This document shows, piece by piece, positions 12,979 to 31,947 of a stretch of 32,000 bases of DNA. This DNA is from Candidatus Saccharimonadota bacterium (lineage in GTDB: Bacteria; Patescibacteriota; Saccharimonadia; Saccharimonadales; UBA4665). The stretch is taken from contig OY970322.1 in NCBI GenBank assembly GCA_963716945.1, positions 960,001 to 992,000 on the forward strand. Direction: 5' to 3'. Position 1 is the first letter of the stretch; each line of letters begins with the position of its first letter. The notes under the pieces were generated by a model, which saw only the letters and a program-made list of their open reading frames with translations, did not search any database and was not told the origin of the DNA. Both the position numbers and the translations under genes were made by a program.

Positions 12979-13665
12979 TTACTTTTTTACTTTGAGCAAA
13001 ATATCTTGTTTTTCGAGTATAACCAACTGTAGCGCGATTAGTATATCTTCAACGGAGAATGACATACCGGTATCTTTTTTGAGGCTGTGGCGCAGCACTT
13101 TTGCGATGTCTTCTGAGTAAAGAGCTTTGGCTATTGATTCAGGCGAGAGTGCGGTACTACGCTTCCAGTAGCCTTCTAGTTCTCCCTTTATAATCGAGTG
13201 CTTTGTTAGGAAGATAAGCTGCTTGGCAGCCGGAGATATTTGCTTTAGGTCGTCTAACTGGAAGCTAAATAGCTTAACCGTATTGATAGGTTTCTTGAAA
13301 ATTACCCTATAAAGTTCTATCTGCCTACCGTTTGTTAAGACCGCCCAATCGATGCCTTCATTGGCGGCGTAGTTTACTGTTTGCCGTATATGACCTTCAT
13401 TCAAATTAATGCCGATTGATTTCACCTCAACCACGAAACATTTATTGCGTTTCAGCTGCACAACGTAATCCGCGTATGAGCCCTTGATCTCATATTCGGT
13501 TTTAATTTCCTCGAGCTCTTCATAGCCCAATACATTGGTTAGCAAGTGATTTACCAGAATGCGAGTCGCCGATTCGTCTAGGTCTTTGTGGTCTTTTAAC
13601 AAGTAGCGGTGTCGATACTCCCTAAGGTTCTTCGTGAGATTCTTGAACTGTAATTCGGTTGCCAT
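12979..13665 (-). CDS. HsdR_N-like PD-(D/E)xK nuclease-fold protein (orphan)
   Basis: 228 aa. The N-terminal ~120 aa resemble the type I restriction enzyme R-subunit N-terminal domain. Candidate catalytic residues are YADYVV (D) and FVVEVKS (ExK). The C-terminal ~100 aa are unknown. No HsdM/HsdS nearby. Confidence 0.7.
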   Translation of the reverse strand: MATELQFKNLTKNLREYRHRYLLKDHKDLDESATRILVNHLLTNVLGYEELEEIKTEYEIKGSYADYVVQLKRNKCFVVEVKSIGINLNEGHIRQTVNYAANEGIDWAVLTNGRQIELYRVIFKKPINTVKLFSFQLDDLKQISPAAKQLIFLTKHSIIKGELEGYWKRSTALSPESIAKALYSEDIAKVLRHSLKKDTGMSFSVEDILIALQLVILEKQDILLKVKK

Positions 13666-15644: not shown

Positions 15645-16409
15645 CTATGGCCTTAACGTTCCCGCAAACACCTGCCAGGCAAGTAGTGACTTAGCGACTA
15701 GACTCAGAATAATATATACCCTTTCGCCATATAGATAATCCTTCCAAGGCCCGACCTTTTTGTACTGGAGTACCATGTTTACCGCAAAACAGCCGAAGAA
15801 GATAAAGATGGAGACGAATATCCAGTATACGAAAGTCGGGGCTTTACTACCCATGTGCGCGCCTAGCGCTAAGTAACCAGCCACCACCAGCCAAGGTACT
15901 AGGCCTGCCCAACAACCGATGAAGTAGCTGAGCCAGTTAGTTTTCTGTGTTGTTTGGTTATGCACTTCCATAACCAGCCCCATTAAGTTCATGATGGATA
16001 TGAGGGCAAACATCATGAGCAAACTGCCGGCGTCATAAATGCCAACGAGCAAACCTATAGCCACCATCATAACGCTAGCCGAGAGGGAGTATTCTATCCA
16101 GCGGGCTTTATTAATACCTAGCTTCAAGTTGTGGTTATAGCGTTCGTTATAGACCGTGGCGATCAGCAGATGAAAAAACGCTGATAGGAAGAAGAAGGCA
16201 ATGATCAACCAAGACAGCTGGACATTAAAGAGTGTTTTAGTAGCGGGATCCAAATGCCGTGTGGCTTTATTGAACTTTAAGTAGGTACCCGTAATCGATA
16301 CGGCAAAACTCTTGCTGATTAGTAATACTGCCAAACCCTGGGCAAAGTGTAGCCCGGCAGCAACCAGGTTTAGTTTTCTAAGTTTCGTATCAGTTATTTT
16401 TTGTGCCAT
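15645..16409 (-). CDS. heliorhodopsin
   Basis: 254 aa from ATG 16409 (GGAG 6 nt upstream; the track's TTG at 16415 is less likely). Seven TM helices. It aligns by eye with heliorhodopsin 48C12 as I remember it: RWIEYSLSASVMMVAI (TM3 counterion Glu), GERVYIILSLVAKSLLAWQVFAGTL (TM7 Schiff-base Lys), and His in TM1 (AAGLHFAQ) and TM2 (AFFHLLIA). Confidence 0.9.
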   Translation of the reverse strand: MAQKITDTKLRKLNLVAAGLHFAQGLAVLLISKSFAVSITGTYLKFNKATRHLDPATKTLFNVQLSWLIIAFFFLSAFFHLLIATVYNERYNHNLKLGINKARWIEYSLSASVMMVAIGLLVGIYDAGSLLMMFALISIMNLMGLVMEVHNQTTQKTNWLSYFIGCWAGLVPWLVVAGYLALGAHMGSKAPTFVYWIFVSIFIFFGCFAVNMVLQYKKVGPWKDYLYGERVYIILSLVAKSLLAWQVFAGTLRP

Positions 16410-16428
16410 ATCCAACTCCGTTATCTTA

Positions 16429-17249: not shown

Positions 17250-17257
17250 ATGGTGCG
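17250..17257. repeat. left copy of 8-bp direct repeat ATGGTGCG (candidate crossover core)
   Basis: Identical to 31747..31754. The flanking similarity continues weakly (14/19). Confidence 0.3.
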
Positions 17258-17316
17258 CTTGGTAGGACAGCTTTCCAACCCTTCGCCGAGCTTGAAGGCG
17301 ATCCTTTCCGCTCTGC

Positions 17317-18081
17317 CTAACGAGCGATGAGCTGCAGACGGACTGCCCTCGGTAGGAGCGCCATACAGCCGGTCGCGCTGGTAAGGCGGGCAAGGTTCTC
17401 CCACATCGCTGCCCGTACTCCGGCGGGCGTCTCGCCATAGTGGCTGGCAAGCGCCTTCTCAACGGTCGCAACGAGACCAGGCCGTGCGTGCTGTCCGCTA
17501 CGGCGGTCCCCAAAGGGGTGGTCGGTCTCCGTAAGGATGCGATCAAGCGGAATGACATCGAGCAGATCAGTACGCCGTACCGAGGCTGCGTTGACCGAGA
17601 AGGAGCAGCCAAGTTCAATCGCACGACGAGTTTGCGCGGGGTCGCCTAGCCACCAATGGAGGACGGCTCCGGCGATGGGCTGAGCCTCAAGAGCCTGGAT
17701 CACAAGGCCGGTAGCCTTGTAGCTGTGCAAGCTTGCGATACGGGATGAGTGCTGAAGTTCCGCGAGAACGGCTGAGAGGGTCGCCTGTTGTGTGCTCATT
17801 GGCACGCGTGACGAGCCATCTAGGCCAACCTCGCTGACGAAGGCAGTTCGTTGAATCAGGTCGGCGAAGCGTTTGCGGTCGAACTTCTTTTGCGCGCCGG
17901 CGAGACCTGGATGACAACCCACACCCCAGATCGTCTGCTCGTCTTTACGAGCAAGTGCAATGTCGGCTTCTGAAAGGGAGCGAGTAGCAGCAAAGATTAC
18001 GGCGCTGAGCAGCCGCAACTCAGCGGGGGCGATGGATGCCTTTACATGTGCATGGAGATCGATGGGCGGCTGCGGACTCAC
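17317..18081 (-). CDS. qatD: TatD-family metal-dependent hydrolase/DNase (QatD-like)
   Basis: 254 aa. N-terminal IDLHAHV (HxH), internal His residues, and C-terminal ILTETDHPF (metal-binding Asp). GTG start overlapping the upstream stop (GTGA). Confidence 0.8.
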   Translation of the reverse strand: MSPQPPIDLHAHVKASIAPAELRLLSAVIFAATRSLSEADIALARKDEQTIWGVGCHPGLAGAQKKFDRKRFADLIQRTAFVSEVGLDGSSRVPMSTQQATLSAVLAELQHSSRIASLHSYKATGLVIQALEAQPIAGAVLHWWLGDPAQTRRAIELGCSFSVNAASVRRTDLLDVIPLDRILTETDHPFGDRRSGQHARPGLVATVEKALASHYGETPAGVRAAMWENLARLTSATGCMALLPRAVRLQLIAR

Positions 18082-19370
18082 AACTCAAGTCCTGCAAGCT
18101 CATTCATGCCACGCCGACAAAGGTCCAGCGCATCAGCCAGTGGGTAGCTTGTAGGAAGGTTCATAGCCGTAAGGTCGCGCTGCCGCACGCCACGCTTGAT
18201 AAAGCTGCGCACGGCTGGCTCTACCGACTTGTCGTTAAGCCAGGCTTGCAGTTTCGTATTACCTCCCGGGGCAATGTACGTGGTGGCATCACTCACGCCC
18301 GACGCCACGAATGCTGCCCTGCGGACGACGCAGCCAAAGCAAACGCCACAGGCTTGGGTCGGCGAGACCTTGAAGGCTCTCTGACCAGTATGCGCACACG
18401 AGTTCGTGCTAGTGAGATAGGCCGAAGCCGCGCCTGCTCCCACTAGCTCGGCAGCACGCGCGAACATCTCACCCTTCGTGTTGGCAACAAAGGGATTTTC
18501 GATCGTGCCGTGAGCACCCACTGTACTCAAAACGTTGCCAAGTCCACCGAGGAACGCTGGATGTGTTGTACGTGTAGACACGCTACCAAGACGCTCTGGG
18601 CCAAGGGGCGGGTTGAGGGAGGCAAAGCCGTTCTCGGGTATCCAAAGTGGCACGTCGTAGACGGAGGCTGCGGCCAAGCCAAGCGCTAGGAACAGAAGCG
18701 AGCGCGAGCGGCTGGTGGGCTCGGTCGGATAGTACGTTCCGTCTAGGCGCCGCTGATTACGGGACAGATGAATTTGTAGGTGCTGCTGTGTAGGTCCAGG
18801 GACCAGTCGCTCCGCCGCCTCTGAAATGGTGCGCTGAATCGGCGCTAGTGCCGGAGCACTGAAATGAGACATAAGCACATGCCGCTCGTTGTCGGCAAGC
18901 ATCGACCGGGAAAGCAGCGCCCCGACTGCCGAATCAGCTCCCCCGCTGAGAAGGACAATACGCTGCGGTGCGGCAGGCTCCGCTGCCACTGCCGGGGCAG
19001 TTTCTACCTGCTCCTCGATAAACTCGAAACTCCAGTGATCCCCGGTGAGGAAGCCGACTACAGATGCTAGCTCACCAGCAAACTGCGCCCATTGAGCAGC
19101 GACGGAGACTGGTATGCGCAGTTGAAACTGGCGCTGGTTCCAGTTTGAGCCCCCGCCAGAACGAACGGTTGAACGATCAGCGGCATACACGGCCACGGCA
19201 AGCCGTACAAAGTCGATACTCAGCGCGGGAACAGGGCCGAGACTACTAAGGTTCGGATCAAGCTTAGTCGTAAAGCTTGACGAGCCTGTGGTAAGCCAGT
19301 AGAAAGATGTCTCCGCCTCGTCTGGACTGATGGTGGTGGGCGCATTGAGGCGCAGCGTAAATGCGGGCAT
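18078..19370 (-). CDS. qatC: QueC-like PP-loop ATPase with N-terminal extension (QatC-like)
   Basis: 430 aa. PP-loop IVLLSGGADSAVGALL at about residue 150. C-terminal Cys cluster CAHTGQ...ACGVCFGCVVRR, like the QueC zinc site. Confidence 0.8.
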   Translation of the reverse strand: MPAFTLRLNAPTTISPDEAETSFYWLTTGSSSFTTKLDPNLSSLGPVPALSIDFVRLAVAVYAADRSTVRSGGGSNWNQRQFQLRIPVSVAAQWAQFAGELASVVGFLTGDHWSFEFIEEQVETAPAVAAEPAAPQRIVLLSGGADSAVGALLSRSMLADNERHVLMSHFSAPALAPIQRTISEAAERLVPGPTQQHLQIHLSRNQRRLDGTYYPTEPTSRSRSLLFLALGLAAASVYDVPLWIPENGFASLNPPLGPERLGSVSTRTTHPAFLGGLGNVLSTVGAHGTIENPFVANTKGEMFARAAELVGAGAASAYLTSTNSCAHTGQRAFKVSPTQACGVCFGCVVRRAAFVASGVSDATTYIAPGGNTKLQAWLNDKSVEPAVRSFIKRGVRQRDLTAMNLPTSYPLADALDLCRRGMNELAGLEL

Positions 19371-20176
19371 CAGGAGCTTCCTTCGTAGATGCTGCGCAAG
19401 GTTTCGATGCCATTTTCGATTGCTTGTGTGAATTGGTCTTCGGTCACACCATCAACAGCGAGATTTGCGCGTGAAGCCAAGGCATCGGCGGCGTCGCGGA
19501 CATCACTTTCTGCCAACTCGGCGTGGTTGGAGTTGTTGATGAGTTCACCAGTCTCACTCAGTAGTGCGTCGGCGATAATCAAGCCGATTGTGTGACGCAC
19601 GATCTCTTCTGGAGTCGGTGGCTCGCCGTCTTGGCTGAGCACCCACTCAGCTACCTCGGCTGCGACAAGTCGCTGCTCGTGGTCCTCGATGGTGCTATCG
19701 GCACGAGCGCAAGCAGCATAGGCGATGCGGCGTGCGATCTCGTACTGATCTCCAAGAGCAGTAAGCTCAGCAAAATTGAGTCCAAGCCGTTCCAGTGTCG
19801 AGGCATCACCCGAGCGATAGGCATATGCCGCAGCCGCAGCGCGTCCTGCGGTCCCCGCCGACCGAGCAACAGTGCGATTGGGACCACCGCCGCTGCGGCC
19901 TCCGCCACCTGTTGCAGTACCGCCTGTGCCGCCAGAGCCCCCGCCCGGGCCATCGCTCCCTCCGCTTGTTCCCGATCGCGGTCTGAGCAACCCAACGATC
20001 GGGAGTATCGCTTCGGGGTTTAGCCGAGGTCTGTCGTGCTCTCCTTGGCCCTGGTCTCCGTTGTCGCCTTGACCTGTCTGTGGTGAGGGAAGCGAGTCAA
20101 GCCAGTTGCTGACGTCCTCGCGCAGGCGCTCTCCGACCTTTCCGCCGCTTCCTGAGTACGAGCCGCTTGTGCCCAT
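19370..20176 (-). CDS. qatB: Gly-rich protein of unknown function (QatB position)
   Basis: 268 aa. N-terminus MGTSGSYSGSGGK, a disordered G/S/P-rich first half, and a helical C-terminal half. Start and stop each share one nucleotide with the neighbouring genes. Confidence 0.65.
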   Translation of the reverse strand: MGTSGSYSGSGGKVGERLREDVSNWLDSLPSPQTGQGDNGDQGQGEHDRPRLNPEAILPIVGLLRPRSGTSGGSDGPGGGSGGTGGTATGGGGRSGGGPNRTVARSAGTAGRAAAAAYAYRSGDASTLERLGLNFAELTALGDQYEIARRIAYAACARADSTIEDHEQRLVAAEVAEWVLSQDGEPPTPEEIVRHTIGLIIADALLSETGELINNSNHAELAESDVRDAADALASRANLAVDGVTEDQFTQAIENGIETLRSIYEGSS

Positions 20177-22050
20177 CAGACAGTCTCCCGTTGCTTGAGC
20201 GCGTCATCAATAGCATTCTTCACCGGCTGACTGCTCGCTTGGCCCTTCCAGCCATTCAGAACCTCGAAGAGGTCCGCGTGGTCATTCGGTGCAAAGAGCA
20301 GCGGAGTTGCGACCGAGACATCGGCGGGAGGCAGCATCAGCAGTGCTTTCTTGGCTGCCCCGACGGAGCCTGGTGCCCGACGGGCTATGCGTAGGATGGC
20401 AGTAACACCTGTCTTCTGCTTCGTTGGCTGGTCCCGCACAGTGCGCCCCAGATGCAGGAGCAGTGCGTCGGCCTCAGTTTGAGACAGAGCATCGATGTCC
20501 TCATCACCGACGGCCTGACGATCGGCCCGTGATGTTGAAAGCAAATTGGATGCGATGTCCCGCAAACGCTCAGGCAAGCTGTTGTCGAGCAAAGTGAAGC
20601 TAGAAAATGACGCCGCCAAGTTAAGATAAGGGGACAGGTCGGTGCCGGCAAGCGCTGGCGGCAGCTTTGCCCAACGGAGCAAGCCCTCACCAAAGCCAGT
20701 GGTGCCGTCATCGGTCGTAGATGCTGGCTCGCCATCCTTGTTCTCGCTGCTGGTTCCCTCACTCGTGGATCGACTGGACGGGGATGACCGACCAGCGGCC
20801 AGCTCAAGCTTGGCGATCTGATCGCGCATTGTCCCCTGAGCAAGCCAACCAAGCACCATCGTAAAGTCCTCCGGCAACAGTACCTCAAGAACCATGAGCT
20901 TTGCGACAACGGCTGGGTCCAACTTGATCCCACGCCGCTCTGCGATCGCCTGCCGGACACGTAGATCATTCAGGAAACGCTTGACGCGCCGTGGATTGCC
21001 GTGCAGCTTCTCATAGAGAATCGGCGTCAGTCGGCTCGCGAACGCAAGCGGATCGCTGATGTCCAATCCATCGATGCCAGCAAGGTCATCGAGACTGCCG
21101 GCTTCACGACGGATTTTGGCGCACTGCTCGATCATCACGTCAAACTTGTCGCCTTCAAGGCTCGGCTGGAGTTGAAGCAGCAGAAGGAAAGCCTGCGTAT
21201 CAAATCGGCTGAGCGCCGGCAGCGGGATCGTGGTTTGCACGATCTTATGTAGATAAAGCTTCGCTGGCTCCTCTTCGTCGTGTCGTGGCTGCTCGGCGAT
21301 GCCTGTATCCCTGAATCGCGTCCGAATAGCATCGGCGACGCGATCCTCGTCGGCTGCAATGACAAATGACATCTTGGGAACTGCAAGGAAGAGGCGAATC
21401 GCCTCCAAGGTCTCAATGACGGTCTCGGGGAGGCAGCGGTCGAGATCATCGACAAGCACCGCTACCGCCTGTATGTGCGCCAGCGCCTCAGACGCCATAA
21501 GCTCACGAAATTCTGATCGGAACTCCTCCAAGCCACGAACCTGCTCATCGTCATCACCCTCTGCGGGCTTTACCAAATCGACAATATCGTCAATCGAGGG
21601 AATCTGAAAAGCCAGTGATGTCTTAGCGGTCAGCTTGATCGCCTTGGCCCAGTCGATGCGCTTGGCTAGACGCGAGACGAGGCGCTGCGCTTTCTCCTTG
21701 ACGCCCTCAATAGTCGTCTCGGAGTTCTCAACCTCACGTGCGAGCGCAGCCAGTACCTCGCCAATAAGAGTCTCCTTTGCCCCGGTCGTGGGATCGTAAC
21801 GCCACGGCTCGGTCTTAATGACAAGTACCTTCTGTCCGTCGGTAGCGCGCTGTCCCAGCTCCTTCTCAACCAAGCCAAGGACAGTTGTCTTGCCACTACC
21901 CCACGCGCCCGAGAGGCCAAGGGCGACCGGATCAAGTGCTCGGTCAAGGAGCGCGTCCGCTGCCGTAGCAGCAACCGCATCGAATGACAGGAGGTCGGTC
22001 GGTGCTGGATCGTCGGACCACAACGCCAAAGTCGGCGCTGTAGTGGTCAT
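20176..22050 (-). CDS. qatA: KAP-family P-loop NTPase (QatA-like)
   Basis: 624 aa. Walker A LSGAWGSGKTT, Walker B/KAP signature VLVDDLDRCLPETVIETLEAIRLFL, and a long helical C-terminal region. Confidence 0.8.
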   Translation of the reverse strand: MTTTAPTLALWSDDPAPTDLLSFDAVAATAADALLDRALDPVALGLSGAWGSGKTTVLGLVEKELGQRATDGQKVLVIKTEPWRYDPTTGAKETLIGEVLAALAREVENSETTIEGVKEKAQRLVSRLAKRIDWAKAIKLTAKTSLAFQIPSIDDIVDLVKPAEGDDDEQVRGLEEFRSEFRELMASEALAHIQAVAVLVDDLDRCLPETVIETLEAIRLFLAVPKMSFVIAADEDRVADAIRTRFRDTGIAEQPRHDEEEPAKLYLHKIVQTTIPLPALSRFDTQAFLLLLQLQPSLEGDKFDVMIEQCAKIRREAGSLDDLAGIDGLDISDPLAFASRLTPILYEKLHGNPRRVKRFLNDLRVRQAIAERRGIKLDPAVVAKLMVLEVLLPEDFTMVLGWLAQGTMRDQIAKLELAAGRSSPSSRSTSEGTSSENKDGEPASTTDDGTTGFGEGLLRWAKLPPALAGTDLSPYLNLAASFSSFTLLDNSLPERLRDIASNLLSTSRADRQAVGDEDIDALSQTEADALLLHLGRTVRDQPTKQKTGVTAILRIARRAPGSVGAAKKALLMLPPADVSVATPLLFAPNDHADLFEVLNGWKGQASSQPVKNAIDDALKQRETV

Positions 22051-22100
22051 GGCGCCAACCTAGAATTATTGCCGAGAATCGAACTATAGGGCATGTCACT

Positions 22101-22106
22101 ATTATA
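22101..22106 (-). promoter_or_regulatory. TATAAT box 50 nt upstream of the qatA ATG; no good -35
   Basis: The reverse strand reads ggcattgTATAATagtgacatgc. Two short palindromes lie just upstream (22127..22137 and 22145..22155). Confidence 0.3.
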
Positions 22107-22176
22107 CAATGCCGGAGTTTGGCAATCTTGCGACAAGGCGAAAGGTGCGTCGCACAAGTGTCATTGTCGGGCGGGC

Positions 22177-22409
22177 TCAGCCTCTGACGATCTGCGATAT
22201 GCGTTGGTGGCTCATGCCCATGATTCGGGCGATGGCTGTCATGGGCAGGCCCTCGCCGTAAGCGGCGCGGATCGCCTCGTCCCGCTCCTGCCGCAACTCC
22301 TCGCCTGCCTTCTCCCACGCTGCCTCGCGCCGAGCGTAGCCCTTGGCAAAGGCTGCTAGCTGGCTTTTGGCTTCGGGTGCTTGGCGTTCAGATCGAGCGA
22401 TTCAGGCAT
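22177..22409 (-). pseudogene. small HTH DNA-binding protein, frame broken at an A4/T4 run (or sequencing error)
   Basis: ATG 22409 gives MPESLDLNAKHPKPKAS-stop. The adjacent frame continues as SQLAAFAKGYARREAAWEKAGEELRQERDEAIRAAYGEGLPMTAIARIMGMSHQRISQIVRG-stop (22177), a typical HTH ending. One extra A in the run at 22365..22368 fuses the two. The downstream frame has no canonical start except a TTG that would give 37 aa. Confidence 0.45.
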
Positions 22410-25261: not shown

Positions 25262-25494
25262 TGGCTGTTGTCGAGTCGTTTCCCGTGGCGTTTGGCGTGA
25301 TCGTGCTCGCACTGGTCGTAATCGGTGCCCTCGCAGGGCTATCCCCTGACTCTCCAGGCGATGATCGGGCCGCCCCCTACCGCGAAGGACTTCATGCGGC
25401 TAACCGCATCCAGAGGGTCGCTCAAGACTTTGAGCAGCAGATTTACGCCGAGGCGGCGCGGCAGATCGAACGAGACCAGGGAGATCGGCCCTGA
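25261..25494 (+). CDS. small N-terminally anchored membrane protein (77 aa)
   Basis: MAVVESFPVAFGVIVLALVVIGALAGL... It is coupled to both neighbours by TGATG overlaps. Confidence 0.55.
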   Translation: MAVVESFPVAFGVIVLALVVIGALAGLSPDSPGDDRAAPYREGLHAANRIQRVAQDFEQQIYAEAARQIERDQGDRP

Positions 25495-26045
25495 TGCACA
25501 ACCAGTCGTCGATCGCCGCGCCTCAATCGCCGGGTTTTCGGCACGAGCGCTCGCGGGGAGCGTCGGTGGAGTGGTACACGCCGCCCGAGGTCTTTCGGGC
25601 GCTCGGCATCTCGTTTGACCTTGACCCGGCAGCTCCGGCTGGTGGTTTGTCATGGGTGCCGGCCAAGCGTTTCCTCAGCCGAGCTGATGACGGCCTCGCC
25701 CAACCCTGGCAGGGCCGGGTGTGGCTGAACCCGCCCTATGGCCGGGAAGTGAATCGTTGGCTCGACCGTTTGGCGCTGCACGGCGACGGCTTGGCTTTGG
25801 TGTTCGCGCGCACGGACACCCGCTGGTATCAGGCGGTTGTGCGACGGGCGACCGCGATTTGCTTCATTGCTGGGCGTCTGTCATTCGTCGGGGCGAACGG
25901 AGTGCCGGTCGGCAGCGCTGGCGCGCCGTCGGTCCTGCTGGCCTTCGGGTTGCCTTGTGCGCTAGCAGTGAGTGAGTCACGGCTGGGACAAACCCTGATC
26001 TTGCCCCGTGAAGTACGACGAGAAAGACCGGGAGGTAAATCCTAA
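25494..26045 (+). CDS. DNA N6-adenine methyltransferase, phage Dam-like family (orphan)
   Basis: 183 aa. VEWYTPPEVFRALGISFDLDPAA, then WLNPPYGREVNRWL (NPPY catalytic motif), then FARTDTRWYQ. No cognate endonuclease is adjacent. Confidence 0.8.
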   Translation: MHNQSSIAAPQSPGFRHERSRGASVEWYTPPEVFRALGISFDLDPAAPAGGLSWVPAKRFLSRADDGLAQPWQGRVWLNPPYGREVNRWLDRLALHGDGLALVFARTDTRWYQAVVRRATAICFIAGRLSFVGANGVPVGSAGAPSVLLAFGLPCALAVSESRLGQTLILPREVRRERPGGKS

Positions 26046-26215
26046 TGCACGACAACCACAAGCAGATAGAGCGCGTCGTGATTGGTCTGGTCGCCTCGGC
26101 CATCAGCATCAACGTGTTGGCAACCGAGCTGCCGCGTGTCATGCCGTATCTCGTCGGCTTGGCTGTGATCTACGTCATCGTCCGGCTTGTTCTGTTTCAC
26201 ACCCGGAATTGGTGA
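26045..26215 (+). CDS. small two-helix membrane peptide (56 aa)
   Basis: MHDNHKQIERVVIGLVASAISINVLATELPRVMPYLVGLAVIYVIVRLVLFHTRNW. Its ATG shares a base with the methyltransferase TAA. Confidence 0.45.
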   Translation: MHDNHKQIERVVIGLVASAISINVLATELPRVMPYLVGLAVIYVIVRLVLFHTRNW

Positions 26216-26456
26216 AAGTTCAGGGGTGATTCCTCTTGTGGTAGGGCTAGTCGTGTCGGTGTTGTGAAATGCACAGAGGGCATTGACTGATTCGCATAAT
26301 CATTATTCAATAGTCATCCTCCCGGTACAGCCGTAAGCGGTACACGGTTTGGTTTTGGTGACGGGCTTGGCCCGTCAAGCAGGAATTAGCCTCTAGTGGG
26401 GCTTGGCCTTCTGCGTGCCAAAATCCGGCCCGGCAGGGAGAGGAAGGAGGTTCACT

Positions 26457-26684
26457 ATGAGTAGAACCTATCATCATGGCGAACGTCGGATTCGAGTCCG
26501 GGGTGTGCGCCGCCCGGCTGACTTGCGCCGTTTGGCGCGGGCACTAATTGAGCTGGAGTATCAGCAAGCCCAGGCCGAGGCGGAAGCCGAAGCCGAGGCG
26601 CAGCACCGGAAGGAGTCGGAAGCCAAGCGTGGTCAGCAGCGCGGTAGTGACGGCGTGGCCGGTACTGAGCGGGGCGGCGCGTGA
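26457..26684 (+). CDS. small basic protein with (EA)n repeat, first gene of the transfer operon
   Basis: 75 aa from ATG 26457, which lies 6 nt after GGAAGGAGG (the track's longer start lacks an RBS). MSRTYHHGERRIRVRGVRRPADLRRLARALIELEYQQAQAEAEAEAEAQ... GTGA overlap with the next gene. Confidence 0.6.
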   Translation: MSRTYHHGERRIRVRGVRRPADLRRLARALIELEYQQAQAEAEAEAEAQHRKESEAKRGQQRGSDGVAGTERGGA

Positions 26685-28837
26685 AGCTGGCGTGGTATCA
26701 ACTGCACTGGCCGCGCGAGGTCGAGCCTGAGCAGGTAGCCCAAGCCTTTCGGCTGCTGGCGACGGCCGCCGGTAGTCCGGTCGTCATTGAAGCGCTCGGT
26801 TCGCCCGGTGCAGTCGAGCATCGTCTGGCCTTGCCAGCCAGTCGGGCCGAGAGCGTGGCTGACCAGCTCCGAGCTGCCATCCCTGGCCTTGCGGTCGAAG
26901 CCGTCGGCGAGCGACCGGCGCTGAACGTCACGCGAGCGGTGGAGCTGCGGGCAACTACCAAACGCCGGCCGCTGCGCACCGACGACATGGCCGGCGTCAG
27001 TCGGGCGATACTGACGGCGCTGGCGCACTTGCGCCGGGGTGAGCGGCTGACTGTCCAGTGGGTGCTCGGCCGTCCGCTCGCGGCAATGGTCGTGCCGAAT
27101 CACCTGGACAGTTTGCCGCCTGAGTCGTGGCTGGCGGCGCTGTTGCTGGCTCCGTTCGCGCCATCGCAAGCGGCCGATGGCGAGCTGCGTAACGCGCTGC
27201 GGGCCAAGCAGGCCGAGCCGGGCTGGCAGGCTGTGGGGCGGGTGGCCGTCAAGGCCAAAACGGTTAGCCGTGAGCGGCAGCTCATCCGGCAGGTGGTCGG
27301 CGCCTTGCGCAGCGCCGAAGCGCCCGGTGTCAGCTTGCGGGTCTGCTCGACCAGCGCCAGCCGGGTGATCGGGGTGAACGTGCCGCGTTGGCTGTGGCGG
27401 CTGCGCTTGAACGCCAGCGAGCTAGCGACCGTCTCGGCGTGGCCGGTCGGCTTGACCGGCGAGTTGCCGGTGGAGATGAGCCCGAGCCGGCTGGTAGCTC
27501 CTTCGGCTGCTGTCCCTAGAGCTGGGCGAGTGGTTGCGACAGCGACCTTTCCTGGCCGAGAGCGTCCGCTGGCGCTCGCGCCTGCCGATTCGCTGCGGCA
27601 TCTGCACGCCCTCGGGCCGACGGGTTCAGGTAAGTCAACGCTGTTGCTCAACCTCATCGTGCAGGACATGGCGGCTGGCCGAGCGGTCGTCGTCATTGAG
27701 CCCAAAGGCGACCTGATCGCCGACGTGCTGGAGCGTGTCCCGCCGAGTCGTCTCGCTGACGTGGTGCTGCTTGATCCGACCGACACCGCGCGGCCGGTCG
27801 GACTCAATCCGCTGGCGCTCGGCGGGCGGTCGCCAGAGCTGGCAGCCGATCAACTGCTCGGCTTGTTTCACTCGCTGTACGCCGCGCATTGGGGGCCAAG
27901 GACGCACGACATTCTCGGTGCTTCCCTGCTGACACTGGCCCGGCTGCCCGGCATGACCTTGGCGGCGCTGCCGCTCTTGCTGACGGATGCCGGTTTTCGG
28001 CGGCGCGTCTTGCCGGGCGTGGTCGATCCGATTGGCCTGGGGCCGTTCTGGAGCGCCTACGAGGCGTGGAGCGAGGCCGAGCGGGCGGCGGCCATCGCGC
28101 CGGTTATGAACAAGTTGCGCCCGTTGTTGCTACGGCCGGAACTGCGGGCCATCATCGGCCAGAGTCGGCGGAGCTTTGACCTGCGGCGGGTCTTCACCGA
28201 GCGCAAGCTACTGCTGGTCAACCTCAGCAAGGGGCTGCTCGGGCCGGAGACTTCGGGCCTGCTGGGGAGCCTGGTTGTCTCGCAGCTCTGGCAGGCGATT
28301 CTCGGGCGGACAGCCATATCACCAGAGCGCCGCCATCCGGTCTTCGTCTACGTTGATGAGTTCCAGGACTACCTGCGCTTGCCGCTCGACCTGGCCGACG
28401 CGCTGGCACAGGCGCGAGGCTTGGGCGTCGGCTTCGTCGTAGCCCACCAGTACATGCACCAGCTCGACCCGGCGATGCGCTCGGCGGTGCTCGCCAACGC
28501 GCAGAGTCGCGTGGCCTTCCGGCTGCCGAGCGAGGACGCACGCAGCATCGCGGCCGACAGTGCCCTGACGGCTGAGGACTTCCAAAGCCTCGGGGCCTTC
28601 CAGTGCTATGCGCAGCTCGTCGCTGGCGCGGCCGTCCAGCCGTGGTGCAGCGCCGCGACCGTGCTGCCCGGCGGCCCGGTCAGCGATCCGGCAGCCGTTC
28701 GCAATGTCTCGCGCCGCGCCTACGGCGTTGATCGAGCCGAGATTGAGGCCGACCTCCAGGAGCTGTTCCTCGGCCGCCGCCAGTCAACCGGCGATGACCT
28801 TGCGCCGCGGCGGCGGAATCATGGGGGTGCGGTATGA
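26681..28837 (+). CDS. VirD4/TraD-like type IV coupling-protein-family ATPase
   Basis: 718 aa. Walker A LGPTGSGKSTLLLN, Walker B VFVYVDEFQDY, and C-terminal AHQYMHQL...NAQSRVAFRL. The ~300-aa N-terminal domain has no TM helix. Confidence 0.8.
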   Translation: MKLAWYQLHWPREVEPEQVAQAFRLLATAAGSPVVIEALGSPGAVEHRLALPASRAESVADQLRAAIPGLAVEAVGERPALNVTRAVELRATTKRRPLRTDDMAGVSRAILTALAHLRRGERLTVQWVLGRPLAAMVVPNHLDSLPPESWLAALLLAPFAPSQAADGELRNALRAKQAEPGWQAVGRVAVKAKTVSRERQLIRQVVGALRSAEAPGVSLRVCSTSASRVIGVNVPRWLWRLRLNASELATVSAWPVGLTGELPVEMSPSRLVAPSAAVPRAGRVVATATFPGRERPLALAPADSLRHLHALGPTGSGKSTLLLNLIVQDMAAGRAVVVIEPKGDLIADVLERVPPSRLADVVLLDPTDTARPVGLNPLALGGRSPELAADQLLGLFHSLYAAHWGPRTHDILGASLLTLARLPGMTLAALPLLLTDAGFRRRVLPGVVDPIGLGPFWSAYEAWSEAERAAAIAPVMNKLRPLLLRPELRAIIGQSRRSFDLRRVFTERKLLLVNLSKGLLGPETSGLLGSLVVSQLWQAILGRTAISPERRHPVFVYVDEFQDYLRLPLDLADALAQARGLGVGFVVAHQYMHQLDPAMRSAVLANAQSRVAFRLPSEDARSIAADSALTAEDFQSLGAFQCYAQLVAGAAVQPWCSAATVLPGGPVSDPAAVRNVSRRAYGVDRAEIEADLQELFLGRRQSTGDDLAPRRRNHGGAV

Positions 28838-29163
28838 GTGCCTGTCGTGTCGCTCGTCGCATCGCGTCGATGACGCTGCCGGCAAACGCCCGTAGTAACG
28901 CCGTAAACGCCCGCACTTTGGCAACGAAAGTCTTTGACTGTTGTTGTCACCTTTTTCTGCCTGGGTGCGGCGGGCAGATCCCGGCCGGGGTGCTGCGGCG
29001 GGCGGTCGGGCTGCTCGATAGCGGCGAGTGCCTGTCAGCGGGGGTGGCGCTGTTCCCCCGGCAGGGGAGCGCCCGTCGCGTCGGGTGCTCGGTGACGCCT
29101 GCGGCAACACCTTTCATGACTGTCTGTTTGGTAACGAAAGGAAAGAATGGAGATAAAGGATGA
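28834..29163 (+). CDS. Cys-rich hypothetical protein (109 aa)
   Basis: No motif and an odd composition. However, both ends are exact ATGA overlaps with the flanking genes (28834..28837 and 29160..29163), and third-position GC is high, as in its neighbours. Confidence 0.4.
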   Translation: MSACRVARRIASMTLPANARSNAVNARTLATKVFDCCCHLFLPGCGGQIPAGVLRRAVGLLDSGECLSAGVALFPRQGSARRVGCSVTPAATPFMTVCLVTKGKNGDKG

Positions 29164-29978
29164 GACGGGCGATGCCCGTGCGTCCTTATATGTCGGGGAG
29201 GGGGCTCCGGCAAACGCGCGAGCGTCTGTCGGCACGGGACTTGGGCATCATCCGGCAGGTGGCCGAGCTGCGGCTGATGAGCGCCCGCCAGATTCAGGCC
29301 GTCCACTTCCCCGCCATCGAGCACGACAACGAGCAGGCCGCCACTCGCGCCCGACAGCGAGTCTTGGAGCGACTGACGCGCGAGCGGCTGCTGATCCGGC
29401 TGGATCGTCGCATCGGCGGTGTTCGGGCCGGTTCGGCCGGTTTCGTGCTGGCGCTCGGGCCAATCGGGCAGCGCGTACTGGCAGTCGGGCCAAGGCGTCG
29501 CGCCTACGAACCGACGCTGCGGTTTGTCGATCACACGCTCGCCATCGCCCAGCTCGTCGTAGACCTGACGGTCGCCTCGCGCCGGGGCGTGCTCGACCTG
29601 TTGGCCTTTGAGGCCGAGCCTCGAAGCTGGCGGGAGTTCGGAGTCATCGGCGGGCGGCGCTTGCTGCGACCCGATGCGTTCCTAGTGCTCGGCAGCGGCG
29701 ATTATGAGCTGCGCTGGTTCATCGAGGTAGACAGGAGTAGCGAGAGCCTGCCGGTGATCGTGCGCAAGTGTCGCCTGTACGCCGACTACTACCAGTCGGG
29801 CAAAGAGCAAGCCGCGCACGGCGGGGTGTTCCCGCGCGTCTGCTGGATCGTGCCGGATGACAGGCGCGCGGAGAAATTGCGCCAAGCCATTGCCCGTGAT
29901 CGCACGTTGCCCGAGGGGCTATTTATGGTGACAGCTACGGGCGTGGCGCTCACTGTTTTGCGAGAGGTAAAAGTGTGA
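29160..29978 (+). CDS. replication-relaxation family protein
   Basis: 272 aa. N-terminal LSARDLGIIRQVAELRLMSARQIQAVHFP and later RPDAFLVL...WFIEVDRSSESL are typical of the family found on actinobacterial-type plasmids and ICEs (recognised from memory). Confidence 0.8.
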   Translation: MRRAMPVRPYMSGRGLRQTRERLSARDLGIIRQVAELRLMSARQIQAVHFPAIEHDNEQAATRARQRVLERLTRERLLIRLDRRIGGVRAGSAGFVLALGPIGQRVLAVGPRRRAYEPTLRFVDHTLAIAQLVVDLTVASRRGVLDLLAFEAEPRSWREFGVIGGRRLLRPDAFLVLGSGDYELRWFIEVDRSSESLPVIVRKCRLYADYYQSGKEQAAHGGVFPRVCWIVPDDRRAEKLRQAIARDRTLPEGLFMVTATGVALTVLREVKV

Positions 29979-30021
29979 AACGGTCCTTTACTCGTATGGT
30001 GAATGTAGTACACTTAACAAC

Positions 30022-31770
30022 ATGCAGGCTGTATCAGTTCAACGGGATAGGAGACACGTATCGATGGCTCTGAGTACGCACGCTGACAATCCCGATGGAG
30101 CTGCGGCCGTCATCTACCTGCGGGTATCGAGCAAGGAGCAAGCCGAAAAGGGCGGCGAAGCCGAGGGATTCTCGATCCCCGCGCAACGCGAGGGCTGCAA
30201 GCGCAAGGCGCAGAGCCTAGACGCGGTAGTCATCGAGGAGTTCGTCGAGCGCGGCGAGTCGGCCAAGACGGCTGACCGACCCGAGTTGCAACGGCTACTT
30301 GCCTACCTCGCCGAGCATCCTGTCAAGTACGTCATCGTCCACAAGGTTGACCGACTGGCGCGCAACAGGGCCGATGACGTAGCGATCAACATGGCGATTC
30401 GGCAGGCCGGGGCCGAGCTGGTGTCCGTCTCCGAGAACATCGACCAAACGCCATCGGGTCTACTGCTGCACGGCATCATGGCCTCGATCAGCGAGTTCTA
30501 CAGCCGCAACTTGGCGACGGAGGTCATCAAGGGCACCACGCAGAAGGCCAAGAACGGCGGCACGCCGGGTCGTGCGCCGATCGGCTATCTGAACGTGCGG
30601 GGCATGATCGAGGGCCGCGAAGTCCGTACCGTCGAGGTCGATCCGGTGCGCGGGCCGCTGATGGCGTGGGCGTTCGAGGCGTATGCGACCGGCGAGTGGA
30701 CAATCCGGCGTCTACTGGCTGAGCTGACCGCCCGAGGCTTGACGACGGCACCGGGCCGAAAGAATCCGGGCCGGCCAGTGGTCGTCTCGCACCTGCATAC
30801 GCTACTGCGCAACCCGTACTACATGGGCATGGTGCGCTACCGGGGAGCGGTCTACGTAGGCAAGCACGAGCCGCTCGTCACGCCCGCCATTTGGCATGAA
30901 GTCCAGAGCATCTTGAGCGCGAAGTACCTAACCGGGGAGAAGGATCGGGAGCACCCGCACTACTTGAAGGGCAGCATCTACTGCGGCCAGTGCGGCGCTC
31001 GCCTGATTGTCAATCGAGCCAAAGGCAACGGCGGCAGCTACATGTACTTCGTCTGTGGCGGACGACAGCGCGACCCGGCAAGCTGCCAGTTCCGGGCGGC
31101 ACGGATCGAGCAGGTCGAGGCTGCCGTCGTCGCCTGCTACGCGACTGTGCAGCTTCCCGAGGATGAGGTTGCACGACTGCGTACCTTCTTGGGTCAAGAG
31201 CTGGCGAAGCTTCGCAGCGACTCCGAGCGTGAACGGGACGAGCAGGAGCGCCGACTGCGAGGACTCCAGGGCGAACGCGAGAAGCTGCTCCAAGCCCACT
31301 ACGCCGATGCGATCCCGCTCGACCTTCTCAAGCGCGAGCAAGACCGCCTCACGACAGCTATAGCCAACGCCGAAGGTCGGCTGGCTGCCATCACCGCCGA
31401 CCTCAAGGCGGCCGATGCAAATATGCACAAGGCCCTGACCCGAGCCGGCGACTGCCAGACCGCTTACGACGAAGCCGCCGACCGGCTGCGCCGGCAATTC
31501 AATCTGACCTTCTTCAAGCGCCTCGTCGTCTACGACTCCAGCAACGTCTCCGCCGAGCTGGCCGAACCTTGGGACATCATCCTCGGAGAGGAGCTGCGAC
31601 GGGCAGTCGCCGCACAAGAGGCCGAAAGCCTCAAAGACGCCATTGAACACGCCAAGCGCGAGCACGCACGACGCCCACGCGGGCCAATCGCAGGCAAGAC
31701 GACAACCGCCGCCCCTGATTGGGGCGGCGGTTGGAGTCCGAACATGATGGTGCGGGTGAGGGGACTCTAA
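30022..31770 (+). CDS. large serine recombinase (integrase)
   Basis: 582 aa (568 if ATG 30064 is used). Resolvase catalytic domain AVIYLRVSSKEQ...VHKVDRLARN, a recombinase domain, the zinc-ribbon CGQCGARL...FVCGG, and a long coiled-coil tail. The last 23 nt overlap tRNA-Gly. Confidence 0.9.
   Translation: MQAVSVQRDRRHVSMALSTHADNPDGAAAVIYLRVSSKEQAEKGGEAEGFSIPAQREGCKRKAQSLDAVVIEEFVERGESAKTADRPELQRLLAYLAEHPVKYVIVHKVDRLARNRADDVAINMAIRQAGAELVSVSENIDQTPSGLLLHGIMASISEFYSRNLATEVIKGTTQKAKNGGTPGRAPIGYLNVRGMIEGREVRTVEVDPVRGPLMAWAFEAYATGEWTIRRLLAELTARGLTTAPGRKNPGRPVVVSHLHTLLRNPYYMGMVRYRGAVYVGKHEPLVTPAIWHEVQSILSAKYLTGEKDREHPHYLKGSIYCGQCGARLIVNRAKGNGGSYMYFVCGGRQRDPASCQFRAARIEQVEAAVVACYATVQLPEDEVARLRTFLGQELAKLRSDSERERDEQERRLRGLQGEREKLLQAHYADAIPLDLLKREQDRLTTAIANAEGRLAAITADLKAADANMHKALTRAGDCQTAYDEAADRLRRQFNLTFFKRLVVYDSSNVSAELAEPWDIILGEELRRAVAAQEAESLKDAIEHAKREHARRPRGPIAGKTTTAAPDWGGGWSPNMMVRVRGL
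31747..31754. repeat. right copy of 8-bp direct repeat ATGGTGCG
   Basis: Covers the CCA end and the last acceptor-stem bases of tRNA-Gly. Identical to 17250..17257. Confidence 0.3.
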
Positions 31771-31824
31771 CCCCTGGCCTCGTCCTTGGCAAGGACGCGC
31801 TCTAAACAACTGAGCTACACCCGC
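31748..31824 (-). tRNA. tRNA-Gly(GCC), CCA encoded, unusual D/T loops
   Basis: Reverse complement GCGGGTGTAGCTCAGTTGTTTAGAGCGCGTCCTTGCCAAGGACGAGGCCAGGGGTTAGAGTCCCCTCACCCGCACCA. All four stems pair. Anticodon loop TTGCCAA. The D loop is AGTTGTTTA (no GG) and the T loop is TTAGAGT (A at position 56). Confidence 0.8.
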
Positions 31825-31871
31825 ATGTTGTACCGGACTATATTACCTGAAATGGCCGGCCGAAATCAACG

Positions 31872-31947
31872 TGGTGGCGCCTCCCAGACTCGAACTGGGG
31901 ACACAAGGCTCTTCAGGCCTCTGCTCTACCAACTGAGCTAAAGCGCC
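31872..31947 (-). tRNA. tRNA-Phe(GAA), CCA encoded
   Basis: Reverse complement GGCGCTTTAGCTCAGTTGGTAGAGCAGAGGCCTGAAGAGCCTTGTGTCCCCAGTTCGAGTCTGGGAGGCGCCACCA. Canonical cloverleaf, anticodon loop CTGAAGA. Confidence 0.9.

Follow-up and report, generated by a model that had tools for sequence, protein, structure and literature searches.

The four-gene locus described here, which lies in a window of 32,000 nucleotides (the whole stretch of DNA that was analysed), is in our estimation, at a probability of roughly 85%, an intact QatABCD operon for defence against phages, of a divergent clade found mainly in actinobacteria, situated between host-like and mobile-element genes. The match to Qat is far beyond chance: the profile E-values of QatA, QatC and QatD range from 1e-36 to 1e-92, and all four genes occur in order, with conserved overlapping junctions, in 78 of the 80 loci examined. 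The first-pass annotation had recognized the QatABCD architecture and considered the locus a known family rather than a new one. The architecture holds, since the products of the first, third and fourth genes match Qat profiles, the second is a remote homologue of QatB by profile comparison, and gene order is kept in relatives. The system is indeed a known one, but this example is not another copy of the published family: its clade is divergent and has for the most part gone unannotated.

Gene arrangement and genomic surroundings

The operon reads from 22050 to 17317, and both the coordinates and the junction letters bear out the earlier description of four co-directional minus-strand ORFs with overlapping starts and stops (Table 1). 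The sequence TGATG occurs at the qatA/qatB and qatB/qatC junctions (at 20176 and 19370, respectively; 1-nt overlap each), and GTGA at the qatC/qatD junction (18078..18081; 4-nt overlap). All four ORFs are full length relative to their homologues, and the motifs previously quoted for the first, third and fourth proteins were all seen in the translations.

Table 1. Features of the qat locus (positions within the window)
Feature	Coordinates	Strand	Length	Description
qatA	20176..22050	minus	624 aa	KAP-family P-loop NTPase with QatA-type C-terminal domain
qatB, divergent actinobacterial subfamily	19370..20176	minus	268 aa	
qatC	18078..19370	minus	430 aa	QueC-like PP-loop ATP pyrophosphatase with N- and C-terminal extensions
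qatD	17317..18081	minus	254 aa	Type II (HxH) TatD-family nuclease
promoter-like site	22098..22125	minus		upstream of qatA; TTGCCA ... TATAAT/AATAGT

A consensus promoter scan returned two sites against 1.3 expected, which is weak evidence taken alone; the -10 box upstream of qatA (GTATAATAGT) is kept in the closest relatives, loci L004 and L005. We infer from these letters that the site listed in Table 1 may function as a promoter. The possibility that an Xre-type HTH gene upstream of qatA acts as a conserved regulator was rejected, since this gene occurs in the genome of the closest relative only.

The operon and its short flanks form a block (17254..22167, minus strand) with 88.7% DNA identity, by blastn, to L004 and L005, which are loci in Solirubrobacteraceae/Actinomycetota MAGs. 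This similarity stops 63 bp beyond the qatD stop codon. On one side the operon is bordered by host-like genes and on the other by mobile-element genes near a tRNA-Gly gene; a comparison of the flank past qatD with the recombinase/tRNA-Gly end revealed no att-type repeats longer than 10 bp. PADLOC matches among ten neighbouring ORFs were limited to an orphan methyltransferase and to a partial, weak match of type IIG. In relatives the flanking genes vary, with defence and mobile genes frequent among them.

QatA, QatC and QatD

QatA matches the QatA models of PADLOC (8.9e-81) and NCBIfam (6.8e-92) as well as Pfam KAP_NTPase (2.4e-39), although its NCBIfam score, 309 bits, does not reach the equivalog cut-off of 600 bits. 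Together with the Walker A (GAWGSGKTT) and Walker B (VDDLDRC) motifs present in the translation, these matches agree with the earlier assignment of the first ORF as a KAP-type P-loop NTPase. QatD shows the same pattern, with matches to PADLOC QatD (1.6e-36), NCBIfam QatD (5e-39; 134 bits, below the cut-off of 230) and Pfam TatD_DNase (5.6e-29), and to the QatD structure 9xsn_A in PDB (5e-20). It had been called a TatD-family hydrolase, as confirmed by these models and by the HAH (residues 10-12) and TETDHP (184-189) motifs; H10, H12, E84, H119, H142 and D187, the two-metal ligands whose roles are defined in PMC13434339, are invariant across this and the canonical clade.

QatC was likewise matched by the PADLOC (2.2e-71) and NCBIfam (2.3e-78) QatC models, its NCBIfam score of 264 bits being just below the 280-bit cut-off, and in PDB by the QatC chains 9zee_B and 9vlk_A (both ~6e-39). 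The first-pass annotation of this ORF as a QueC-like PP-loop ATPase with an N-terminal extension of ~140 aa was correct on both counts: SGGADS, the invariant PP-loop (S142-G-G-x-D146-S147), begins at residue 142, and the CGVCFGC cluster (341-347) contributes to an invariant zinc site (C325/C341/C344/C347). Also invariant are the Qat-specific Thr-x-Thr substrate loop (S265-T266-R-T268-T-H270-P271) and the R350-R351 pair. The published catalytic residues are all present, and the active-site residues are identical in this and the canonical clade.

QatC shares with housekeeping QueC (7-cyano-7-deazaguanine synthase, PF06508) the Rossmann-like PP-loop fold, the SGGxDS motif and the Cys4 zinc site, and Pfam QueC gives a weak match (2e-06) confined to its C-terminal part (residues 287-356). 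These features might suggest a housekeeping or secondary-metabolite 7-deazaguanine (queuosine/preQ0) cluster not involved in defence, a reading that we regard as effectively refuted. The best matches are to QatC models and structures rather than QueC; QatC lacks the canonical QueC catalytic motifs and carries additional domains at both termini; and the substrate residues of QueC are replaced, as in other QatC proteins, where an invariant Thr-x-Thr stands in place of the CDG-reading Tyr/Asp. In E. coli, QatC did not complement a queC deletion. Moreover, qatC is always linked to genes for a KAP NTPase, QatB and TatD and does not have a que operon context. As the earlier annotation had stated, queuosine genes are missing from the vicinity (a scan of the 28 main flanking ORFs gave none), and no queD, queE, queF or tgt was found in the window or in annotated relatives.

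Comparison of the four proteins with the QatA-D profiles, which had been proposed as a check, thus gave a divided result: QatA, QatC and QatD match, all three below the curated NCBIfam cut-offs, and QatB does not.

QatB and the distribution of the clade

Searches of QatB against the PADLOC models PDLC02211-13 and NCBIfam NF041924 gave zero matches even at E<=10, while canonical QatB proteins, used as positive controls, were found by the same models. As for Pfam PF28083, none of the close QatB homologues has an entry in its precomputed Pfam field; the Pfam copy searched contained no QatB model, so the non-match of QatB itself to Pfam carries no weight. Sequence and profile searches against PDB returned low-complexity noise only and no QatB chain, whereas a canonical QatB profile recovered the QatB chains 9vll_A and 9zee_A at 3e-59. 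Foldseek comparison of the AF2 model of QatB with PDB gave no match at E<=0.001, in a library which ends at 2026-04-08 and may miss QatBC entries. A canonical QatB modelled with AF2 as the planned control reached a pLDDT of 42 from a shallow alignment, so that the negative Foldseek result is uninformative.

Since the standard models give no match, the assignment was rescued only by deeper profile work. An hhalign comparison of thin QatB profiles (63.6% probability) was superseded by a run with broadened profiles, which gave a probability of 99.0% and E = 3.5e-18 over 144 columns, aligning QatB residues 125-268 with 135-289 of Delftia QatB. In addition, bridging proteins were discovered which are matched by the QatB profile of the window family (E = 1e-13 to 1e-21, library-wide) and whose core is also matched by the canonical QatB profile. 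These proteins match the NCBIfam QatB model at 3e-8, carry Pfam PF28083, and are encoded inside KAP-QatB-QatC-like-TatD operons. On these profile alignments the second gene product is a remote QatB, homologous over its helical core.

The protein consists of an N-terminal MGTSGSY, two short helices, a Gly-rich linker (~69-99) and the helical core (103-267). In the AF2 model the core has a pLDDT above 90, and residues 1-9, 35-45 and 69-99 of the tail are of low pLDDT. The earlier description of a Gly-rich protein of this length was accurate; that of a protein with no recognisable fold was not, as the core is confidently predicted to be helical and is homologous to QatB.

Could the locus instead be a QatA/C/D remnant with an unrelated filler as its second gene, or a decayed, non-functional operon? 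The missing matches to QatB models and PDB chains, the low-complexity Gly-rich region of the second protein, and a qatA gene that is split in the assembly of one relative (L004) would fit such a reading. It is nevertheless very improbable and largely refuted by the remote homology to QatB, the four full-length ORFs with intact catalytic residues, and the conserved architecture; furthermore, 30-78 sequences show no variation in the QatB N-terminal motif or in many residues of the core. Among the 80 loci, 74 are clean A-B-C-D arrangements, in four a single gene is divided between reading frames, and only two are incomplete, one missing qatA and the other both qatA and qatB.

QatB begins with MGTSGSYSG, an instance of the clade motif M-G-T-S-x-[SA]-[YF]-x-G, in which G2 and G9 are invariant and position 7 is Y or F (78 clade members). 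The modified N-terminal peptide of canonical QatB is GTSKAY; by analogy, MGTSGSY is probably an acceptor motif, with Gly2 as acceptor, at the end of a long flexible tail. The PLVPxW tail element, found in 119 of 120 canonical QatB proteins, is present in none of the 78 from this clade. In canonical QatB this region (P16/W18) is essential, deletion of residues 16-22 or 14-20 having abolished defence. From its absence in the clade, we suggest that recognition of the tail may differ from that in canonical systems. In this clade residues 1-9 of QatB and every active-site residue of QatC are kept and the rest of the tail is replaced, which distinguishes the essential parts (the Gly2 motif and the core-docking surface) from the lineage-specific ones.

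A QatC-based genome scan located the clade in 114 species genomes, mostly of Actinomycetota; its hosts include Streptomyces, Mycobacterium, Nocardia and Microbacterium (species-level genomes), and its QatB family comprises 251 clusters at 50% identity. In two Rhodococcus plasmid copies PGAP names both QatB and QatC "hypothetical". A 2026 survey of Qat reported 91.7% Pseudomonadota and no Actinomycetota. Because QatB has no model match and the other scores are below threshold, the clade largely escapes current annotation and the published distribution figures are probably biased. A sizeable branch of Qat is therefore largely invisible, and detection of defence systems in actinobacteria would gain from a QatB model that includes this subfamily.

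Proposed action and comparison with known systems

The first-pass annotation called the mechanism poorly understood, a view now outdated by four papers from 2026 (PMC13279940, PMC13376578, PMC13639016, PMC13434339), which report structures of QatBC and QatD from work on the systems of E. coli, P. aeruginosa and A. baumannii. These structures indicate that Gly2 of QatB is modified by QatC; against some phages QatBC alone suffices. In the E. coli system, where QatC carries the same Thr-x-Thr loop, a QatB N-terminal peptide with an NDG modification was detected. The reaction of canonical QatC is debated, one group having failed to reconstitute it, and NDG was seen at the peptide level only.

By analogy with these three systems, the clade proteins might act as follows. 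After removal of Met1, the QatB core would dock, in a 1:1 complex, on the C-terminal extension of QatC, perhaps through an acidic patch around E174/E177/D183/E185 facing the basic K392/R393/R396/R398, patches which appear conserved in alignments. The flexible tail would then thread Gly2 into the active site, where QatC would adenylate a carboxylate (7-carboxy-7-deazaguanine in a single MS report) and transfer it to the Gly2 amine. The resulting QatBC unit would block the phage through some downstream step, with QatD (3'-5' exonuclease and AP endonuclease) and QatA (a DNA-binding oligomer of KAP NTPase) presumably widening the phage range.

Perhaps the architecture is the same and the chemistry is not. 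Clade hosts might be unable to make 7-carboxy-7-deazaguanine, and QatC might attach to Gly2 something other than a host-made 7-amido-7-deazaguanine group, using either another carboxylate or phage-supplied 7-deazaguanine precursors, whose availability would be the infection signal. We consider this unlikely, though less so than the readings rejected above. Actinobacteria, to which most hosts belong, are reported to hold most of the species that do not use, do not make or only salvage queuosine, so that CDG supply is uncertain; the CDG-reading Tyr/Asp are replaced, queuosine genes are absent as described, and two groups call the first QatC substrate unidentified. Against this, many actinobacteria produce preQ0-derived metabolites. 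The NDG-modified E. coli peptide and the identity of active-site residues between clades also favour the canonical chemistry. If the alternative were true, the clade would be a natural system for identifying the first QatC substrate, and a tail with a helix and Gly-rich linker in place of PLVPxW would suggest an alternative means of substrate delivery. A clade from a phylum reported to hold many species not using or making queuosine is a useful test of 7-deazaguanine as the substrate of QatC.

Among other systems, the QatABCD reading invites comparison with Cap9-CdnD of Type IV CBASS. In the deazaguanylation described by Wassarman et al. (cited in PMC13279940), a QueC-family enzyme likewise acts on the N-terminal Gly2 of a partner which starts with MG(G/T)S and carries a flexible tail, with ATP-dependent chemistry in both. 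Qat differs in that the partner is QatB rather than a CD-NTase, with neither a Cap10/TGT-like gene nor a cyclic-nucleotide effector, and in that QatC is ~20 kDa larger and has Thr-x-Thr where Cap9 has the CDG-reading Tyr/Asp.

The closest likeness is to canonical QatABCD (Gao et al. 2020), with the same four genes in the same order and overlapping junctions, carried in both cases on mobile DNA or in defence islands. Both have a KAP NTPase with a C-terminal domain as QatA, a QatB that begins MGTS and combines a long flexible tail with a homologous helical core, a QatC with SGGxDS, Thr-x-Thr, the Cys4 zinc site, the RR pair and both terminal extensions, and a QatD with HxH two-metal ligands. The clade differs in its hosts, mainly Actinomycetota rather than Pseudomonadota or Bacillota, in the identity of QatC and QatD to their canonical counterparts (only ~27-33%), and in a clade-specific C-terminal extension of ~20 aa in QatD. 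In its QatB, the place of PLVPxW is taken by a predicted helix (12-28; R19 and W25 conserved), a second short helix is present, and the linker is Gly-rich where that of canonical QatB is Pro-rich.

Operon organization and the QatA, QatC and QatD products

The four minus-strand ORFs lie exactly where the first-pass annotation had placed them, and every motif that it quoted is present in the translations. The chained start/stop overlaps were also read from the minus strand: the A/B and B/C junctions are both TGATG with one shared base each, and the C/D junction is GTGA with four. Its assignment of the operon to QatABCD was right; A, C and D match the PADLOC and NCBIfam Qat models, and B is a divergent QatB.

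Features of the Qat operon, its surroundings and related loci (window positions unless a locus is named)
Feature	Position	Strand	Remarks
HSDR_N_2 protein gene	12979-13665	-	228 aa
Heliorhodopsin gene	15645-16415	-	Pfam PF18761
qatD	17317..18081	-	254 aa ORF
qatC	18078..19370	-	430 aa ORF
qatB	19370..20176	-	268 aa ORF
qatA	20176..22050	-	624 aa ORF
HTH-like frame	22177-22401	-	
Mobile-element module	25494-31947		
Dam-like orphan methyltransferase	25494-26045		qatA-upstream side
T4SS coupling-protein-like gene	26681-28837		qatA-upstream side
Replic_Relax gene	29160-29978		qatA-upstream side
Large serine recombinase	30022-31770		qatA-upstream side; 3' end overlaps tRNA-Gly(gcc)
tRNA-Gly(gcc)	31748-31824		followed by tRNA-Phe
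Defence genes flanking Qat operons	L001 1-355; L006 6173-9088; L098 1-2139; L014 5409-8089		
QatC match	~5001-6290 in L029, L065, L070; 1645-2913 in L043		

The PADLOC and NCBIfam models were matched by QatA (8.9e-81 and 6.8e-92), QatC (2.2e-71 and 2.3e-78) and QatD (1.6e-36 and 5e-39), and the Pfam matches were KAP_NTPase, TatD_DNase and a partial QueC. All three scores lie below the curated NCBIfam equivalog cut-offs (309 vs 600 bits for QatA, 264 vs 280 for QatC, 134 vs 230 for QatD). QatA has both Walker A and Walker B motifs, and its match to the QatA model extends over the C-terminal domain. For QatC, the solved homologues 9zee_B and 9vlk_A align at ~6e-39. In the alignment, S142-G-G-x-D146-S147, S265-T266-R-T268-T-H270-P271, C325/C341/C344/C347 and R350-R351 are invariant both in the divergent, mainly actinobacterial branch that includes this operon (the clade) and in the published, canonical family. 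QatD possesses the full two-metal ligand set (H10/H12, E84, H119, H142, D187) defined on the Acinetobacter baumannii protein (PMC13434339), together with a clade-specific C-terminal extension of ~20 aa.

Identity of the second gene

The profile check proposed in the first-pass annotation failed for the second protein, which has zero PADLOC or NCBIfam matches even at E≤10 and matched no PDB chain in single-sequence or family-profile searches. These null results are meaningful, since the controls succeeded: every canonical QatB tested is detected both by NCBIfam NF041924 and by the three QatB models of PADLOC, and a canonical QatB profile retrieves QatB chains of known structure (9vll_A and 9zee_A, 3e-59). 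The Pfam null carries no weight, because QatB is not among the models of the local Pfam copy. The family splits into at least 494 clusters when grouped at 90% identity and into 251 at 50%; among the matches listed its members are named only 'hypothetical protein' and lack any Pfam domain.

The N-terminus, MGTSGAYSGSGGK, is near-invariant in the family alignment. In the complete plasmid-borne Qat operons examined, the B-position proteins start with MGTS, one probably with VGTS and one having a misannotated start. The latter is the Agrobacterium C58 pAt QatB, whose annotated start lies 351 nt downstream of the true MGTS start at L013:2443. In four related loci (L009, L010, L012, L013) QatB is often a 'hypothetical protein' and QatA a 'P-loop NTPase', despite QatC and QatD being named by PGAP. 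Work on canonical Qat found QatB Gly2 to be essential, and the N-terminal peptide GTSKAY to bear a 7-amido-7-deazaguanine (NDG) adduct.

Beyond the N-terminus, hhalign of the family alignment against seven canonical QatBs gave a probability of 63.6%. Distant full-length members were recovered by profile search of a 50%-clustered library, and the canonical profile matches these at ~93-280, so beyond the N-terminus as well. With both profiles broadened by the distant members, hhalign gave 99.0% (E = 3.5e-18) over 144 co-linear columns, pairing window QatB 125-268 with Delftia QatB 135-289. In addition, the curated NCBIfam QatB model matches four bridging proteins, which both profiles recognize, at 3e-8 to 4e-5; two of the four carry Pfam PF28083 (QatB) and are located in KAP-QatB-QatC-like-TatD operons. 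On the strength of the broadened alignment and these bridging proteins, the second gene is a QatB of a divergent subfamily missed by the PADLOC and NCBIfam QatB models.

The protein had been described as having no recognisable fold, which is not borne out by the AF2 model: a helical core at ~103-267 has pLDDT above 90, two short N-terminal helices are present, and confidence is low at 1-9, 35-45 and 69-99. Its most conserved block, S161-T-I-E-D-H-E-Q-R169, is paired by hhalign with canonical G-T-V-D-E-G-I-A-R. E174, E177, D183 and E185 come out close to the acidic patch of canonical QatB. This interface mapping comes from alignment and may be offset by one or two residues.

Distribution and genomic context

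A QatC-type search of one genome per species found the window type in 114 genomes, with 46-88% identity across the best 80 loci kept. The genera include Streptomyces, Amycolatopsis, Nocardiopsis, Mycobacterium, Nocardia, Rhodococcus, Microbacterium and Arthrobacter, and the clade is further represented by MAGs labelled Chloroflexota, Acidobacteriota, Binatia and Saccharibacteria. Other carriers are Demequina aurantiaca ARC0220 (NZ_CP192436.1) and the MAG chromosomes OY970180.1 and OY970350.1. Among these best 80, a clean QatA-QatB(window type)-QatC-QatD order is found in 74, four have a single gene split between reading frames, and two are missing qatA or qatA plus qatB. The last are probably truncations, because QatC in L034 and L064 lies at most 400 bp from the contig end. 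A canonical-type QatB was the best match in none of the 80, and the overlapping junctions are kept across related loci. All of 78 clade QatBs have G2, G9 and a Y or F at position 7; S or K occupies position 4 in 77 of them, and Gly makes up a median 34% of the linker.

PGAP labels two Rhodococcus plasmid copies 'P-loop NTPase fold protein / hypothetical / hypothetical / TatD family hydrolase'. Actinomycetota are not listed in a 2026 survey covering 631 QatD sequences, and a census of defence systems in actinobacteria does not mention Qat. The locus had been considered a known family; it is indeed a known kind of system, but in a widespread, unannotated actinobacterial variant.

The actinobacterial-type operon was also seen in Saccharibacteria/Patescibacteria-labelled MAGs and one Stenotrophomonas maltophilia-labelled contig (L029, L043, L070, L065), which suggests horizontal transfer or binning contamination. 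Saccharibacteria/Patescibacteria are known epibionts of actinobacteria. Of two assemblies of the closest relative (L004 8129-10001, L005 8130-10001), one has qatA in 475-aa and 73-aa pieces and the other intact at 623 aa; the difference stems from a frameshift or else from misassembly.

In line with the first-pass annotation, a scan of the 28 main flanking ORFs turned up no queuosine genes. The block 17254..22167 is common to the closest relatives (Solirubrobacteraceae/Actinomycetota MAGs) at 88.7% identity, with similarity stopping 63 bp past qatD; the other two common pieces, both shorter, are the coupling-protein gene and an upstream stretch. Given this limited block and the adjoining mobile-element genes, the operon has the look of mobile cargo, carried as a cassette whose position varies. 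A search for att repeats of the element gave none. Defence genes beside Qat operons of both clades include pPIWI_RE (Lentzea), SIR2 plus ATPase (Rhodococcus plasmid), type I R-M and CBASS (Bradyrhizobium), a typical defence-island context.

The small HTH-like frame, ending GLPMTAIARIMGMSHQRISQIVRG*, is conserved in the closest relative (79% identical amino acids), but its first 35 codons offer no ATG, GTG or TTG start. Between it and qatA, relatives have ~480 bp including an Xre-type HTH gene, confined to the closest relative's genome, and the window has 18 bp. The heliorhodopsin gene (E = 1e-93) adjoins NAD(P)H-binding and RibD_C genes in a low-GC stretch at ~12-17 kb (0.39-0.52 vs ~0.6 elsewhere). 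The HSDR_N_2 domain (Pfam 7e-09) resembles a type I restriction R-subunit N-terminus; its protein weakly matches a PADLOC type IIG enzyme, and no partner genes lie nearby.

Proposed mechanism and comparison with canonical Qat

The earlier remark that the mechanism is poorly understood is outdated, as it is partly known from canonical systems. In the window operon the genes are intact, overlapping and conserved, with every catalytic residue and the acceptor motif in place. By analogy with the canonical systems, QatB would lose Met1, its core would dock onto QatC, and its tail would bring Gly2 into the PP-loop active site, where QatC would adenylate a carboxylate, reportedly 7-carboxy-7-deazaguanine (CDG), and couple it to Gly2. 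QatBC alone may restrict some phages, the range being presumably widened by QatD (in canonical systems an exonuclease and AP endonuclease inhibited by NTPs) and QatA (there an oligomer that binds DNA).

Actinobacteria reportedly include most of the species that either make no use of queuosine or obtain it by salvage alone, and QatC is described as lacking the Tyr/Asp that read CDG. If hosts of the clade cannot supply CDG, the QatC substrate differs or is phage-derived.

T266 and T268 of the window QatC are the counterparts of the essential T278 and T280 in P. aeruginosa QatC, and the place of the canonical QatB-binding basic patch holds K392, R393, R396 and R398. The PLVPxW element separates the QatBs of the two branches: all but one of 120 canonical proteins have it (119), against 0 of 78 from the clade.
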